64,000 nucleotides of DNA, taken from NCBI GenBank assembly GCA_903837495.1, contig CAILUT010000005.1, positions 43,782-107,781 on the forward strand, given 5' to 3'. How positions within the stretch are numbered: the stretch's first letter is position 1; the number at the start of each line of letters is the position of its first letter. A program made the position numbers and the translations under genes. This document shows, in pieces, positions 4,330-63,563 of the stretch. A model generated the notes under the pieces. The model had not been told where the DNA came from and searched no databases. It was given only the letters and a program-made list of their open reading frames with translations. This stretch comes from an uncultured Flavobacteriales bacterium. Its GTDB lineage: Bacteria; Bacteroidota; Bacteroidia; CAIKAF01.

Positions 4330-4473
4330 GGGGCGGCAGCCGGGCTTTCCGGGCTACTCCGCGGTCCAAAGCGGGCCGGTGCAAGCCCGGCAGTAGCTCC
4401 TCGCGTCGCTCTGCCGTGCCAACACCGGCAGCCGCTTTGGCCCTTGCGGGGTAGCCGCGTCAATCCCTGCCGC
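4330..4473 (-). repeat. GC-rich nested-hairpin intergenic element, copy A (inverted orientation)
   Basis: Ends GGGGCGGCAG...TCAATCCCTGCCGC. Internal reverse complement of the conserved core. About 70% GC against roughly 50% background. Confidence 0.65.
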
Positions 4474-4682
4474 GGGCGGCCTGGGTGAAAAACCAACAAT
4501 ATAGAATAGAGCCGCATGGGAACATCAAACACAATGTGTTGATTGCCAATTAATTAGACCTGCCAGCCTTGACAAAACAGGGAGATTGGCTTATTTTTGT
4601 TGGTTCAAAGAATCTAGGGAATACCGCAGCGCAATTGGGAGTTCCGCATCTCTGGATATTTTTCAAAATTAAAACGTCAAGA

Positions 4683-5402
4683 ATGGAAAAATTCAAGAAC
4701 AAATACCGCATTGCCTCGACCCGCGCCACATACTGGGATTATGGCTGGAATGCCGCCTATTTTATTACCATCATTACCCAAAATTGGTCTTGCTGGTTTG
4801 GCAAGGTGAAAAACAAAAAGATGGAATTATCAGACCTAGGCGCGTATGCAAATTCGTGCTGGTTGGAAATACCGAACCACTTCCCCTTTGTAGAATTGGG
4901 TGCTCATGTAATTATGCCAAACCACGTTCACGGCATTTTGATTATTAACAAACCGGTCGTAGAGACGCAATATTTTGCGTCTCCCGCCGGTAAATCAAAC
5001 CATAGCGACAACGTCGTAGAGACGCAAAATATTGCGTCTCCCGACGACAAATCAGATCGTAGCGACAACGTCGTAGAGACGCAATATTTTGCGTCTCCCA
5101 ACGGGAAATCAGACCGTAGCGACAACGTCGTAGAGACGCAAAATATTGCGTCTCTACAAACGCCACAAAACAAATTCGGGCCACAATCCCAAAATTTGGC
5201 GGCCATCGTTCGTGGATATAAAATAGGCGTAACAAAAAACGCCCGGTTGATTCACCCGAAATTCAAATGGCAACCCCGGTTCCATGACCACATTATACGT
5301 GATGAAAGGGCATTTAATGCCATTTCAAATTACATTTTAAAAACCCCGCCAAATGGAATTCCAATCGGTAGAGACGCACTATTTTGCGTCTCCCGCCGGT
5401 AA
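4683..5402 (+). CDS. REP-associated tyrosine transposase (RAYT; IS200/IS605-like HuH Y1 transposase) carrying an in-frame 68-aa REP-array insertion
   Basis: N-terminal YRIASTRATYWDYGWNAAYFITIIT, HuH motif VIMPNHVHGIL, then C-terminal WQPRFHDHIIRDERAFNAISNYILKTP (catalytic Tyr motif). Between the HuH and Tyr motifs sit four REP units translated as VVETQYFASP.../VVETQNIASP... Confidence 0.7.
   Translation: MEKFKNKYRIASTRATYWDYGWNAAYFITIITQNWSCWFGKVKNKKMELSDLGAYANSCWLEIPNHFPFVELGAHVIMPNHVHGILIINKPVVETQYFASPAGKSNHSDNVVETQNIASPDDKSDRSDNVVETQYFASPNGKSDRSDNVVETQNIASLQTPQNKFGPQSQNLAAIVRGYKIGVTKNARLIHPKFKWQPRFHDHIIRDERAFNAISNYILKTPPNGIPIGRDALFCVSRR
4956..5157. repeat. REP array (4 hairpins, alternating loop orientation, 53-60 bp period) inside the RAYT ORF
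   Basis: GTCGTAGAGACGCAATATTTTGCGTCTCC and GTAGAGACGCAAAATATTGCGTCTCTAC alternate. Inter-hairpin segments are near-identical (..AAATCAGACCGTAGCGACAACGTC). Confidence 0.8.
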
Positions 5403-6541: not shown

Positions 6542-7258
6542 ATGAAAGACAGGAAAAAACCCGAAGTGGATCTCCGTAAATATGGGACTCTCATGTTTGC
6601 TCTAGCCCTTACCCTATCGGTTTCGGCGGTATTGATGGCCACCGAATTTCGGTACTTTGAAGAGCGGCTTTTGGAAATTTTTATTGCAGAAGAAGAGTTT
6701 TTGGTGCAGGAACAGGTAATCAATTACATACCACCACCGCCCTCGGCCGCTCCTAAGCCTCCCCCTCCCTCGGTTGTAGAACAGATTCGAATTGTTGAAA
6801 ACGAGGTTGAACTAGAGCAAGAAGTTGAAATCGACGTTGAAATTGACCTAGAAACTGAAGTGTCGGATCAGCAGGGAGAATTTGGTCAGCAAGAAGAAGC
6901 GGTTCAAGACGATCAGATATTTCAGATTGTGGAAGACATGCCCCGCTTTGCCGGTTGCGAAAAGGCCAAAGACATAGATGCCTGCTTTCAAGAGAAATTG
7001 TATGCGTTTTTGGGTAAAAACCTAAAGTATCCGCCCACAGCAAAAGACATGGGAATTACCGGAAAGGTGTATGTTGGTTTTGTGGTTGAAAAAGACGGCA
7101 GCGTTGGCCAGGTTACTGTGTTGCGCGACATTGGTGGTGGTTGCGGGAATGAAGCCAAGCGGGTAATTTCAAATTTACCAAATTTTACCCCCGGGAAGCA
7201 ACGTGGACGGCCTGTGCGGGTGCAGTACCAACTGCCCATTAATTTCCAACTTCGCTAA
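6542..7258 (+). CDS. tonB: energy transducer TonB
   Basis: N-terminal TM, Pro-rich PPPPSAAPKPPPPS spacer, and C-terminal TonB_C domain (MPRFAGCE...GKVYVGFVVEKDGSV...VQYQLPINFQL). Confidence 0.8.
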   Translation: MKDRKKPEVDLRKYGTLMFALALTLSVSAVLMATEFRYFEERLLEIFIAEEEFLVQEQVINYIPPPPSAAPKPPPPSVVEQIRIVENEVELEQEVEIDVEIDLETEVSDQQGEFGQQEEAVQDDQIFQIVEDMPRFAGCEKAKDIDACFQEKLYAFLGKNLKYPPTAKDMGITGKVYVGFVVEKDGSVGQVTVLRDIGGGCGNEAKRVISNLPNFTPGKQRGRPVRVQYQLPINFQLR

Positions 7259-7887: not shown

Positions 7888-7960
7888 TTTTACTTTAAGG
7901 TGTAGGAGTGGGATTGCTAGGGCTTTAGTGAAATGAGGGCGCAGAACGATTGAGTGGCCT

Positions 7961-8103
7961 GCGGCAGGGATTGAAGAGGGTTGCCCGCAAGGTTGGCAGG
8001 GCCTGGCCCGCGTGGCGCGGAGGCGACTTTAGGAGCCCCCGCAAGCCCGCTGGGACAGCCCCTGGCAACCGCGGACTACCCCTGAAAGCCCAGCTGCCGC
8101 CCT
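7961..8103 (+). repeat. GC-rich nested-hairpin intergenic element, copy B
   Basis: GCGGCAGGGATTGAAGAGGGTTGCCCGCAAGG...GCGCGGAGGCGACTTTAGGAGCCCCCGCAAGCCCGCTGGG...GAAAGCCCAGCTGCCGCCC. Internal stem GGTTGGCAGGG/CCCTGGCAACC. Confidence 0.7.
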
Positions 8104-8146
8104 AAAGAAAATATGTATCGAAAGCTGTGAGAAGAGGCGCGGCCTG

Positions 8147-26930: not shown

Positions 26931-27401
26931 TGCATTGCTTTCCGTTCATGAATTGAATTCGAAAATAATCATTTTGGGGGACTCCACGGCAGCACAGGGC
27001 AATCCCAGTCCGTGTAAATGGCAGGGCATTTTTTTAGAGCGGAATTTAAGGCGAAGGCATGACCGGCGCCTATAAACCTATTTATCTAAGATAGAGCACC
27101 GATTTGAAATTCCAAATCAACAGCCCGCCGCATGTTTCCAAACCCGATTTCCCTCAACCCCAAATCCCAAGCCCCAAAAAATGTGGGATATCCTTATCGC
27201 CTGTTTCAATCCTACGATTTCCGCTGCCTAAGCGCCCGAACCTATCCGTCAGATGGGAATAAAAGCAGCATTGAGAACCCAGATGAACACAAACAGCCAT
27301 GCGGCTGTTCTTGATTCGGCATCTGAAATTCGGGTATAACCTGTTTTTTTGCCGGCCGCATTGCGTTCAGTTCAAGACACAAACCGCCCCAAAATATTCC
27401 C

Positions 27402-30421: not shown

Positions 30422-30492
30422 TGCCCGATCGTCTAACGGTAGGACAGCAGTTTTTGGTACTGTTTGTGGTGGTTCGAATCCATCTCGGGCAA
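30422..30492 (+). tRNA. tRNA-Gln (anticodon UUG)
   Basis: Hand-folded: acceptor TGCCCGA/TCGGGCA, D-arm GTCT-AACGGTA-GGAC, anticodon stem GCAGT/ACTGT with loop TTTTGGT (U33, UUG), 4-nt variable loop, T-arm GGTGG-TTCGAAT-CCATC, discriminator A. CCA is not encoded. Confidence 0.8.
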
Positions 30493-45967: not shown

Positions 45968-46118
45968 GGCGCCCCGGCCCCCGGATTGCAGCGGCAGGGG
46001 GCGGGTGCTGCGGGCAGGGCAGGGCCGCCGGGCGGAGGCGACTTTAGGAGCCCACGCACCGGCCAGCCCTGCCGCCCGCAGCACACGCACACTACAGCGG
46101 AAAGCCGGATAGGGCCCC
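45968..46118 (+). repeat. GC-rich nested-hairpin intergenic element, copy C (most diverged)
   Basis: Core GCGGAGGCGACTTTAGGAGCCCACGC. Long stem GGGTGCTGCGGGCAGGGCAGGGCC / GGCCAGCCCTGCCGCCCGCAGCAC. Sits in a divergent-promoter region. Confidence 0.55.
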
Positions 46119-50492: not shown

Positions 50493-50634
50493 GGGCGGCT
50501 GCGGGCTTTCACCGGTAGTCCTCGGTTGCCGGTGGCTGGCCCAGCGGGTTTGCGGGGGCTCCTAACGTCGCCTCCGCACCACGCGGGCCAGGCACCGCCA
50601 CCCTGTGGGCTACCTGGTTCAATCCCTGCCGCAG
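50493..50634 (-). repeat. GC-rich nested-hairpin intergenic element, copy D (inverted orientation)
   Basis: GGGCGGCTGCGGGCTTTC...GGCTCCTAACGTCGCCTCCGC...GGTTCAATCCCTGCCGC. Confidence 0.7.
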
Positions 50635-52698: not shown

Positions 52699-52736
52699 TT
52701 TAAAATGGGACTGCATCAAAACAACGGTGCGGTGAG

Positions 52737-52879
52737 CGGCAGGGATTGAGCAGGGTTGCCCGCAAGGGTGCTGACAGGGGGCCCGCGCGGCGCGGAGGCG
52801 ACAGCAGGAGCCCCCGCAAGCCCGCTGGGCCCGCTGTCAGCAACCGCGGACTACCAGCGAAAGCCCGCCTGCCGCCCCC
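52737..52879 (+). repeat. GC-rich nested-hairpin intergenic element, copy E
   Basis: GCGGCAGGGATTGAGCAGGGTTGCCCGCAAGG...GCGCGGAGGCGACAGCAGGAGCCCCCGCAAGCCCGCTGGG...GAAAGCCCGCCTGCCGCCCCC. Stem CTGACAG/CTGTCAG. Confidence 0.7.
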
Positions 52880-56232: not shown

Positions 56233-56973
56233 ATGGAGCTGAGAACCGAAAATTTAGAAAAGTCCTACCGCGGCCGATCCGTGGTAAACCAAGTCAGCAT
56301 TCATCTGAATCAAGGCGAAATTGTAGGCCTGCTAGGCCCCAACGGGGCAGGAAAAACCACCACTTTCTATATGGTTACGGGCATGATTGCCCCCGATGCC
56401 GGCCGCATTTTTTTGAACAACCAAGACATCACCGGCTTGCCTATGTACCAGCGCGCCCGCCGCGGCATTGGCTACCTGCCGCAAGAGGCTTCCGTTTTTC
56501 GAGGACTCAGCGTCGAAGACAACATCTTGGCCGTTTTAGAACACCTGCCGCTCAGCAAAGCCGAACAACGCGAGCGCTGCGAAACCTTGCTGCACGAATT
56601 TGGACTGAACCGCGTACGCAAAACCAAAGGCAATTTGCTTTCGGGGGGCGAACGGCGCCGCACCGAAATCGCTAGGGCCCTCGCCACAAACCCCGGATTC
56701 ATTCTCCTAGACGAACCCTTCGCCGGCGTGGACCCCATCGCGGTCGAAGACATCCAATCCATTGTGTTTGCCCTAAAAGAACGCAACATCGGCATTCTCA
56801 TCACCGACCACAACGTGCAAGAAACACTATCCATCACCGACCGTGCATACTTGCTCTTCGAAGGCAAAATCCTAAAAGCCGGCAGCGCCAGCGAATTGGC
56901 CGAAGACGAGCAGGTCCGCCGCGTTTACCTTGGCCAAAATTTCGTGCTCAGCCCACGCAATCCACGGACTTAA
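56233..56973 (+). CDS. lptB: LPS export ABC transporter ATP-binding protein
   Basis: Walker [15 protein letters not shown] signature LSGGERRR, Walker [13 protein letters not shown]. 246 aa. Confidence 0.9.
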
Positions 56974-57005
56974 TTCCCTTTTTTTTCTTTCTCTTTTGGG
57001 GGGCG

Positions 57006-57134
57006 GTTGCGGGCTTTCACAGGTTGTCCGCGGTTGCCGGGCATTGCCCCAGCGGGCTTGCGGGGGCTCCTAAAGTCGCCTCCGCGCCACGCGGGGCAAG
57101 CCCCGCCACCCTTGCGGGCAACCCGGTTCAATCC
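57006..57134 (-). repeat. GC-rich nested-hairpin intergenic element, copy F (inverted orientation)
   Basis: GGGGGGCGGTTGCGGGCTTTC...GGCTCCTAAAGTCGCCTCCGC...GGTTCAATCCCTACCGC. Confidence 0.7.
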
Positions 57135-57189
57135 CTACCGCAGGCCACCCAACCCCTTTCTACTCAAAATTTAAAAAATAGGCCTTTTG

Positions 57190-57225
57190 CCCTTGACAAG
57201 TTAAAACCGCCCCCGTACCTTTGCA
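57190..57225 (+). promoter_or_regulatory. strong Bacteroidetes-type promoter (-33 TTG ... 20 bp ... -7 TACCTTTG) with no protein-coding gene downstream
   Basis: TTGACAAGTTAAAACCGCCCCCGTACCTTTGCATATC matches the TTTG-N19-21-TAnnTTTG architecture. Confidence 0.45.
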
Positions 57226-57227
57226 TA

Positions 57228-57472
57228 TCACTAGTGAAAAAACGTTTGATGCTTTGATTTTTGCTTCGTCACGTAAAGGGGTGGCGAAGAACACTTCGGG
57301 TTCTTTAAGCGTGAAGTTTGATGGTGAACCACAGAAGAGCCGAACGGCAATTTTGGGGTTCATCCGGGGGTCTCAGAAATGCCTCTGGGCCTAGGCAAAG
57401 GAAACTTTGTTAAAGTCTAGGGGCGGGAATTATGGGCATGAGACGGGTGATTTGGCAACTCACCATTTTTTT
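57228..57472 (+). ncRNA. candidate small RNA (about 240 nt) bounded by promoter and intrinsic terminator
   Basis: No ORF longer than about 30 aa on plus. The 3' end GGTGA-TTTGGCAAC-TCACC hairpin + TTTTTTT sits at 57446-57472. No match to tmRNA, RNase P or SRP signatures. Confidence 0.3.
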
Positions 57473-57652
57473 AAGAGGCGTTGAGTGAAGAGGCTGGAGA
57501 AGGAAAGGCAAGAGGAAGAGGGAAGGAACAACTTTTTTAGGCAGCGTTTTTTTCTGGTTGAGGCAGGCTCGCCCAAGGGAGTCCATTCTACTGTTGCAGT
57601 TAGGATGCACCGCTATTGGACAGAACTCAACGACTTAAGCAGTCCCAAAAAA

Positions 57653-58051
57653 TCAGCCCCTTGAAAAGGCCCCCAAAATTTGCTGCAGCAATCGAGCGTC
57701 ATTCCCACACCAGTTAAGCAGCCTCCAAAATTCCGGAGCCACCCAAACCACCGAATCATGGTCGCTGCTGTGGCTGGGCCAATCCAATGCACAGCTCGCC
57801 TCTAAAGCAATCAACCTTAGGTTTGCTGCTCCCGCTTGCTCCACACTCCCCAAAACCCGCCCAACCTTCAATTCCATCCCCAACTCTTCCTGGAACTCTC
57901 GAACAAGCGCTTGCCCCGCCGTTTCACCCTGACCTACTTTCCCCCCCGGCAATTCCCACAGCCCCGCATTTGTCTTCCCCGCCTTTTTCCTTGCCGCCAA
58001 AAACAAGCCTTGCCTCCATACCAATCCGCAAACCACCTGTAGCTGACTCAT
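57653..58051 (-). CDS. NUDIX hydrolase (MutT/8-oxo-dGTP diphosphatase-like)
   Basis: Nudix box GLWELPGGKVGQGETAGQALVREFQEELG. Start MSQLQVV overlaps the upstream gene by ATGA. Confidence 0.75.
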   Translation of the reverse strand: MSQLQVVCGLVWRQGLFLAARKKAGKTNAGLWELPGGKVGQGETAGQALVREFQEELGMELKVGRVLGSVEQAGAANLRLIALEASCALDWPSHSSDHDSVVWVAPEFWRLLNWCGNDARLLQQILGAFSRG

Positions 58052-63388: not shown

Positions 63389-63420
63389 AGGCGATAAACG
63401 GCCACGATGCGCGGCAGGGA

Positions 63421-63544
63421 TTGACGCAACTACCCCGCAAAGGTGCCGACGGCTGGCCCGCTAGGTGCGGAGGCGACGTGAGGAGCCCCCGCAAACCAGC
63501 TGGGCCAGCCTTTCGGCACCTGCGGAGTAGTGCGGAAAGCCCGG
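63421..63544 (+). repeat. GC-rich nested-hairpin intergenic element, copy G
   Basis: GCGGCAGGGATTGACGCAACTACCCCGCAAAGG...GTGCGGAGGCGACGTGAGGAGCCCCCGCAAACCAGCTGGG...GAAAGCCCGGCTGCCGCCCCCC. Stem GGTGCCGACGGCTGGCCC/GGGCCAGCCTTTCGGCACC. Confidence 0.7.
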
Positions 63545-63563
63545 CTGCCGCCCCCCAAAAAAA

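Follow-up and report, generated by a model that had tools for sequence, protein, structure and literature searches.

We consider it fairly probable that positions 57166-57631 of the window, as we call the whole 64-kb stretch of DNA analysed here, form a free-standing gene whose product is a complex-folded non-coding RNA of a family absent from Rfam 15, and that this gene is made of a core (module A, 57228-57472) and a second structured segment, module B, located 3' of it. A conserved promoter, a two-module fold supported by covariation and the independence of the unit from its genomic surroundings led us to propose a new non-coding RNA family. The preliminary description of this DNA had seen an ordinary small non-coding RNA at this site; what the comparison of homologues revealed instead is a multi-helix RNA with a GNRA-capped helix, conserved junctions and a second structured module. 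The most likely role of this RNA is that of a folded scaffold acting in trans, perhaps with read-through being regulated at the 3' hairpin. All features of the unit given below are on the plus strand.

Homologues of the unit in lake metagenomes

The analysis is based on 17 copies of the unit from lake metagenomes, which correspond to 12 distinct sequences and about eight types, with identities down to approximately 70%. All 17 copies retain the promoter, a 5' palindrome, the helices P1 to P4 and a 3' hairpin. The copies L094-L096, belonging to one species (P0006), were found by synteny; in this species the region is 73% identical to that of the window, the promoter is kept and compensatory changes are visible. 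A metagenome scan using the 17-mer GGGTCTCAGAAATGCCT yielded 41 loci, including 15 homologues at 70-99.6% identity. Since most homologues were retrieved by this exact 17-mer, both the breadth and the invariance observed are biased; its bases are invariant by construction, so that the actual family may extend beyond this sample. Model R1, which was built from two species only (that of the window and that of L094/L095), recognized all 17 copies at 89-298 bits and gave no match in 91 other Bacteroidota loci amounting to 0.57 Mb. Within the window, a weak full-length R1 match on the minus strand at 27173-27400 (19 bits, E 0.0055) is probably a chance one.

In the window the unit lies between lptB (56233-56973, plus strand) and a convergent gene encoding a NUDIX hydrolase (57653-58051, minus strand), both outside the unit; the latter is the opposite-strand neighbour that the preliminary description had indicated. 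Lake metagenomes contain many contigs of the same species that encode an identical LptB and differ by only a few substitutions in the spacer. Among the LptB relatives at 90-94% identity, the RNA occupies the lptB-NUDIX spacer only in the P0006 species; in sister species an unrelated tandem repeat takes its place, and the P0004 contigs break at a GC-rich repeat. The RNA was absent from the corresponding locus in the tier of relatives with 80% LptB identity and in a relative with 83% ParE identity. Among the GTDB matches listed, neither blastn/nhmmer nor R1 found it near LptB relatives at 76% identity or less; hence there is no general link between the RNA and lptB. Its absence from the lptB-NUDIX spacer of sister species implies that it is perhaps non-essential, or that it moves around the genome. 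The preliminary description had made its candidate depend on conservation in close relatives: this was confirmed elsewhere in related genomes, and fails for the lptB-NUDIX spacer of several sister species. The carriers are metagenome-assembled genomes named 'Bacteroidia bacterium' or 'Bacteroidetes bacterium', from lakes and wastewater, and the closest LptB relatives with names, among the matches listed, are of the Chitinophagales type (76-77% identity). The family has so far been found only in related uncultured freshwater Bacteroidia.

A conserved promoter precedes the RNA

Direct reading of the plus strand showed TTGACA at 57193-57198 (the -33 element) and, after a 17-nt gap, TACCTTTG at 57216-57223 (the -7 element). 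The Bacteroidetes sigma-A consensus consists of TAnnTTTG together with a -33 TTTG (PMC7366714), and the -7 element conforms to it. A promoter of this class at 57193-57223 was the starting point of the preliminary description, and the homologues bear it out: the -33 element is retained in 10 of the 12 distinct sequences, L094 and L147 having TTCACA in its place, and the -7 element in 11, the sole departure from TAnnTTTG being TAAATTTA in L126, while the distance between both boxes is constant to within one base. An A/T-rich tract at 57166-57179 may act as an UP element, and most sequence types are A-rich before TTGACA; it is at the A-rich tract just 5' of the -33 box that the similarity between copies from different contexts starts. 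The pattern TTG-N20-TAnnTTTG is present seven times in the 64-kb window versus 1.4 expected, a count reached in none of 100 shuffles, and one of the six other sites lies 11 nt 5' of the only tRNA gene of the window. This enrichment and the site before the tRNA gene imply that the pattern marks real stable-RNA promoters in this genome.

The RNA would start at about 57228, at a palindrome (UCACUAGUGA in the RNA, TCACTAGTGA in the DNA, 57228-57237) found 4-7 nt 3' of the -7 box and conserved as UCAYNNRUGA in 11 of the 12 sequences. Its GUGA (57234-37) can pair with UCAC at 57460-63, a helix that we call P0. Between the palindrome and the first hairpin there is a U-rich variable linker (57238-57263), which measures 7-25 nt across the family.

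The core folds into covarying helices

Folded as single sequences, the core of the window copy (z = -5.3) and that of L094 (z = -6.2) are far more stable than their shuffled versions. When the 12 distinct sequences were aligned with plain MAFFT, RNAalifold returned P1, P2, the apex of P3, P4 and the terminal GUGA/UCAC pairing; this sequence-only alignment contains 48 pairs, and in 10 of these both partners have changed in a compensatory manner. The main covariation count comes from an alignment of the 12 distinct sequences fitted to the model, and so leans towards structure: 94.3% of its 725 cells are paired, versus 40-44% with the partners slid, and 14 pairs have changed on both sides, versus 2-4 in the slid controls, none of 500 shuffles reaching the observed values. 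The covariation analysis that the preliminary description had recommended shows that helices of module A, and P6 of module B, are held by compensatory substitutions beyond the controls. Many invariant G·U pairs identify the plus strand as the transcribed one.

The core fold comprises 61 pairs, a GNRA loop and conserved asymmetric loops. Hairpin P1 (57264-57289, pairing 57264-72 with 57281-89) has nine pairs, with 99% of cells paired and a U-A to C-G compensation, and its loop carries a conserved GGGG on the 3' side. P2 (57293-57317) also has nine pairs, 89% of cells being paired, and shows one C-G to G-C swap, while the long hairpin P3 (57323-57364) contains 14 pairs, six of which have changed on both sides, with 93% of cells paired. 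The stretch GGGGGUCUCAGAAAUGCCU (57366-57384), comprising the J3/4 junction and the 5' side of P4, is identical in all copies; at 57368-84 this invariance is by construction, these 17 bases being the metagenome search key, and L094-L096, found by synteny, keep them independently of that key. P4 (57370-57444) is a composite helix: its base is GUCUCA/UGAGAC, GAAA faces a 13-nt strand in its asymmetric internal loop, and positions 57401-57404 form a tetraloop at its apex. The tetraloop is GAAA, GCAA or GUAA across types, which defines it as GNRA; in the P4 helices 93-99% of cells are paired and five pairs have changed on both sides.

Some pairings were discarded. A 19-bp closing helix, which the U-rich linker forms in the minimum-energy fold of the window copy, has no counterpart in L094 or other types, and a paired double change of G/C to U/U breaks it in the strains L002/L004. 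A scan for conserved long-range pairings and pseudoknots within and between modules A and B produced many G·U-rich candidates that could not be told apart from effects of composition; examples are the pairing of UGGCAA in the 3' hairpin loop with CUUUGUUA of P4 and that of GGGGUGG in the P1 loop with CCAUYC of P6. It is worth mentioning that the GC skew is +0.35 to +0.40 across positions 57300-57600 of the window, the transcribed strand being G-rich and C-poor, and that the flanking genes have negative values.

A weak 3' hairpin is followed by a second structured module

The core ends with the hairpin GGUGA (57446-50)/UCACC (57460-64), which in the window has 5 bp and a 9-nt loop of the form xxUGGCAxx, and with seven U's at 57466-72. 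In the family the stem has 5-6 bp, its arms covary (GGUGA/UCACC versus GGAUGA/UCAUCC) and the loop is conserved; the folded 3' segments of the homologues range from about -4 to -10 kcal/mol. The U-run contains from two to seven U's; one lineage has it reduced to UUAUU, and other lineages have it interrupted. In L094 and L147 the 5' arm of the hairpin is mismatched and P0 is intact, whereas L126 shows the reverse. A terminator scan of the region did not call this hairpin, whose 9-nt loop exceeds the limit of the scan. The low stability, the variable U-run and the mismatches in some lineages suggest that this element is a weak, probably leaky terminator. In the preliminary description it appeared as a clean hairpin and T7 terminator at 57446-57472; the hairpin and the U7 are indeed present, but a weak 5-bp stem does not deserve that adjective.

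Downstream of the hairpin, a spacer (57473-57555) formed by a variable purine-rich tract and then by T-rich tracts is present in all types; it ranges from about 20 to 105 nt, is poorly alignable between types, and full-length folds gave no consistent structure for it. Module B (57556-57631, about 76 nt) begins about 85 bases past the 245-base core and is located 3' of it in each of the eight genomic contexts identified, travelling with the core even between contexts that share nothing else. It comprises the helices P5, P5b and P6. The closing helix P5 pairs GUUGAG (57557-62) with CUCAAC (57626-31) in the window, and is UUUGAA/UUCAAA in L126 and UUUUGA/UCAAAA in L121; P5b pairs 57566-70 with 57579-83, and both helices were taken by eye and from single-sequence folds. 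P6 (57584-93 with 57597-57607) was evaluated on the plain MAFFT alignment, in which 92% of its cells are paired versus at most 50% when slid, with four pairs changed on both sides; about 15% of its cells are U·G, which would be A·C mismatches if read on the minus strand. Module B shows a 7-nt indel and, in L156, a stop codon, both of which indicate that it is non-coding. As no TAnnTTTG/-33 pair is present in front of module B, we infer that it would be co-transcribed with module A by read-through, as a unit of about 405 nt. The transcript of about 240 nt put forward in the preliminary description agrees with the core of about 245 nt and underestimates the conserved unit.

In L156 (around 6803-6900) and in L131, a sequence of about 75 nt that begins where module B ends (AAAACTCAACCACTTAGCCTATTTGCCCTG...CCCTCAGGGGGCAATTCTACAGCC) is tandemly duplicated. 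By eye, neither module B nor the loop of the hairpin nor the purine-rich spacer showed the conserved hallmarks of tRNA-like, T-box-like, CsrB-like or anti-SD sponge elements, and these readings were dropped.

These features can be accommodated in a simple model. Transcription would proceed from the palindrome at about 57228 under the control of the conserved sigma-A-type promoter, and the weak 3' hairpin with its U-run would halt part of the transcripts, giving rise to an RNA of about 245 nt together with a read-through RNA of about 405 nt carrying module B. The GUGA/UCAC pairing would compete with the 3' hairpin and could set the ratio of the short to the long form. The product would be a folded scaffold acting in trans by binding a protein or a small ligand, rather than a simple antisense sRNA.

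An ordinary trans sRNA of about 245 nt, acting by base pairing and ending at the hairpin and U7, with module B as a separate element having a promoter of its own that went unrecognised, is an unlikely alternative that nevertheless merits consideration. The core has its own promoter, on sequence evidence, and its layout of promoter plus hairpin and U-run resembles that of the canonical intergenic sRNAs of Bacteroides (PMC7366714); but its 61-pair fold is far more elaborate and constrained than that of typical sRNAs composed of a seed and a terminator. Likewise, a run of at least four U's is retained in most types, but the hairpin preceding it is weak, its loop is conserved and one lineage has a mismatch in it. 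Single-stranded G-rich segments, namely J3/4 and the P1 loop, could serve as seeds for such an sRNA; the separation of module B that this explanation demands is at odds with its accompanying the core through every rearrangement, with no TAnnTTTG/-33 before it.

A possible switch between modules A and B

The 3' arm of the hairpin has two possible partners, the 5' arm of the hairpin itself and the 5' palindrome, the latter pairing (P0) being backed by RNAalifold and by model R1. This arrangement invites the idea of a built-in switch, in which module A would sense a metabolite, a tRNA or a protein and gate an effector, module B; otherwise, module A could be the core of a ribonucleoprotein or of a ribozyme. 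We hold this reading to be rather doubtful.

A related explanation is that of a riboswitch-like attenuator without a coding target, where the sensing of a ligand, a tRNA or a protein by module A would toggle between P0 and the hairpin and thereby control read-through into the module B effector, a mode of action known from EutX/Rli55 and other non-coding RNAs under riboswitch control; we find it quite improbable. The 5' palindrome and both arms of the hairpin are mutually complementary and change together between lineages, although this coordinated change represents only one or two evolutionary events. RNAalifold prefers P0, yet this helix has only 4-5 bp and one covarying pair, and is contradicted by a mismatch in L126. 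The size of the core and the conservation of its junctions are aptamer-like, and module B is always downstream on the same strand; however, no known aptamer matches the core, and without a regulated gene no ligand can be inferred. Indeed, in the eight contexts we found no functionally consistent same-strand downstream genes, as would be expected for a cis-regulatory leader or riboswitch, and no neighbour gene in any of them points to a partner protein or ligand. If the switch were true, it would represent a riboswitch-type regulator with a non-coding RNA output, confined to an uncultured lineage of freshwater Bacteroidia.

In a separate observation, the loci L102 (5370-5470) and L103 (5300-5400) share a conserved segment, CCGCAAATCAGGGGTGT.CAATGCATTTGTAGAA.GGA.AAGA.CCACAGC..., followed by a hairpin and a T-run. 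This segment lies upstream of an ornithine/DAP/arginine decarboxylase gene and may be an attenuator or a riboswitch-like leader.

The RNA does not match known families

At the gathering threshold, the 4227 models of Rfam 15 detected only the tRNA at 30422 in the whole window. With E values up to 10, the region and three divergent homologues gave only unrelated sub-threshold matches that differed between members; one of these, a match to L21_leader at 27.9 bits, less than the gathering score, on the minus strand of L120, is absent in the other members and was attributed to chance. ARAGORN did not find a tRNA or tmRNA between 56000 and 59000, and neither RNase P RNA nor SRP RNA had an Rfam match in the window or in the four divergent members, in agreement with the preliminary description, which had denied the RNA a tmRNA, RNase P or SRP identity. 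The Rfam covariance search that it had advised, for 6S RNA and other sRNAs, was likewise without a family match in the four members; in particular, there was no RF00013 or 6S-Flavo match. Our literature searches found no description of this RNA.

A divergent housekeeping RNA (6S, tmRNA, RNase P RNA or SRP RNA) missed by the standard models is in our opinion highly unlikely. The gene does resemble stable RNA genes in being single and free-standing, in its strong consensus promoter and in its variable surroundings, but even the permissive search (E up to 10, four divergent members) and ARAGORN failed to relate the RNA to any of these. Its supported fold consists of four serial hairpins instead of the 6S rod with a central bubble, the long closing helix is unconserved, and neither the loci of sister species nor those of the 80% LptB tier contain the RNA, all of which largely refutes this explanation.

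The unit occurs in eight unrelated genomic contexts

Besides the lptB-NUDIX context of the window, the unit was found between era and a NUDIX gene; between era and a gene for a 369-aa protein with no Pfam match; between a divergent recJ and a gene for a 369-aa protein, again with no Pfam match; between rmuC and DUF502; between a divergent HmuY-like gene and a 2-hydroxyacid dehydrogenase gene; between parE and priA; and between DUF349 and MscS genes. The downstream gene is convergent in seven of these eight contexts, with unrelated functions, and the only co-directional one, priA, lies beyond a GC-rich repeat. There were no terminal repeats or target duplications at the borders of the unit. The eight unrelated contexts, the limits of similarity between copies and this lack of terminal repeats together imply a free-standing gene that is neither a leader nor a visibly mobile element.

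The near-identical units of L152, L131 and L156 (about 92% identical to the window) are flanked by three distinct pairs of sequences, the breakpoints falling exactly on the borders of the unit; this reflects either frequent rearrangement in the clade or chimeric assemblies. In addition, the window contains a GC-rich intergenic repeat of about 160 nt, which occurs at least five times and in both orientations, at 56989-57152, 7950-8111 (minus), 50493-50634 (plus), 52736-52879 (minus) and 63411-63560 (minus), with partial copies at 46032-46058 and 4441-4477. Contigs of relatives end or carry N-gaps at this repeat (L106-L108, L104), and a similar sequence is found beside the RNA unit in L122, L126, L150 and L121. 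A second perfect TTGACA-N17-TAnnTTTG promoter is located at 4569-4599 of the window, before an ORF (4684-5402, plus strand) starting MEKFKNKYRIASTRATYWDYGWN. Judging by eye from its N-terminal sequence, we take this ORF to resemble the REP-associated tyrosine (IS200-like) transposases; with a partial copy of the GC-rich repeat just upstream, it may be the mobiliser of those repeats. As for the tandem repeat in the lptB-NUDIX spacer of sister species, it consists of one to at least four units of about 160 nt ending in GGCCCAACGGCC and a T-run (terminator-like), with assembly gaps inside (L097, 3742-4140; L100 and L101, 3742-4446; a single unit in L091 and L098). The lptB-NUDIX spacer is a hotspot for different small elements.

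These observations raise the question of whether the RNA belongs to a mobile or defence element, such as an orphan OMEGA guide of TnpB or IscB, a retron msr-msd or a small non-autonomous element, which we regard as very improbable. Its presence or absence at the lptB-NUDIX spacer among congeners and the near-identical copies with different flanks would fit such an element, as would the REP-like repeats and the candidate RAYT-like transposase gene in the window; however, no reverse transcriptase, TnpB, IscB or transposase gene adjoins the unit in any of the eight contexts, all of which have housekeeping genes as neighbours, and there was no HEARO or other Rfam match, nor the terminal inverted repeats or target duplications of a transposable unit. 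A guide-like variable segment of fixed length is also lacking, the linker varying between 7 and 25 nt. Blastn against plasmids and phages gave no match, and viral contigs scanned with two conserved motifs yielded only a chance 16-mer match inside a phage gene. Moreover, contigs continue across the unit, an indication that each genome has one copy.

Finally, that the locus encodes a small protein was refuted, in spite of a 93-aa minus-strand ORF that gene callers annotate in several strain contigs and of a plus-strand ATG ORF of 30 codons (57321-57413), given that both are disrupted in the window or its homologues and that the substitutions track base-pairing instead of codon periodicity. The antisense ORF has an in-frame stop in the window and a frameshift in L125, and is unrecognisable in distant types. 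No plus-strand ORF is conserved in the unit when homologues are compared: the start of the 30-codon ORF, the only comparable one, is lost or stops are gained in them, which upholds the earlier view that there is no credible ORF on this strand. The 27-codon ATG ORF previously placed at 57284-57364 does not exist as such, as there is no ATG at 57284.

Comparison with known RNAs

New classes of bacterial RNAs of 245-405 nt are uncommon, especially in Bacteroidota, whose RNA biology is poorly explored, and complex-folded bacterial RNAs with conserved junctions have repeatedly proved to be ribozymes, riboswitches or ribonucleoprotein cores. Bacteroidota have been reported to be without chaperones of the Hfq or ProQ type. 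Our work provides a covariance model, defined helices, a bipartite architecture and, for a group of lake bacteria that is abundant, a testable hypothesis of a switch; should the RNA be merely a lineage-specific sRNA, the outcome would be a useful annotation and no more.

Among the systems to which the folded RNA proposed here can be compared, 6S RNA is also the product of a stable RNA gene in variable contexts, with 5' and 3' ends that can pair, and the present gene is apparently strongly expressed too; the two differ in that four serial hairpins take the place of a rod with a central bubble, and the 6S and 6S-Flavo models did not match. EutX/Rli55 and SreA are riboswitch-controlled non-coding RNAs. 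The present unit shares with them a large structured 5' domain, then a hairpin resembling a terminator, with an alternative partner for its 3' arm, and a non-coding RNA downstream; unlike them, it has no known aptamer, its alternative helix is short and weakly supported, and no ligand is implied. The intergenic sRNAs of Bacteroides, such as GibS, have in common with it a TAnnTTTG promoter, an intergenic site and a terminal hairpin with a U-run (PMC7366714). In contrast to these sRNAs, it is larger and more constrained, possesses a downstream module and has no obvious single-stranded seed, and no homology between them was detected. Another known system is the raiA motif RNA, an orphan complex-folded bacterial non-coding RNA of about 200 nt that was found by comparative genomics. 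The RNA described here differs from raiA-type RNAs in its lack of a match in Rfam 15, in its phylum, being found in uncultured Bacteroidia, and in its bipartite organization with a module after a weak terminator; like them, it has a free-standing gene with its own promoter, a 3' hairpin, covarying helices, conserved junctions and loops, and no associated ORF.
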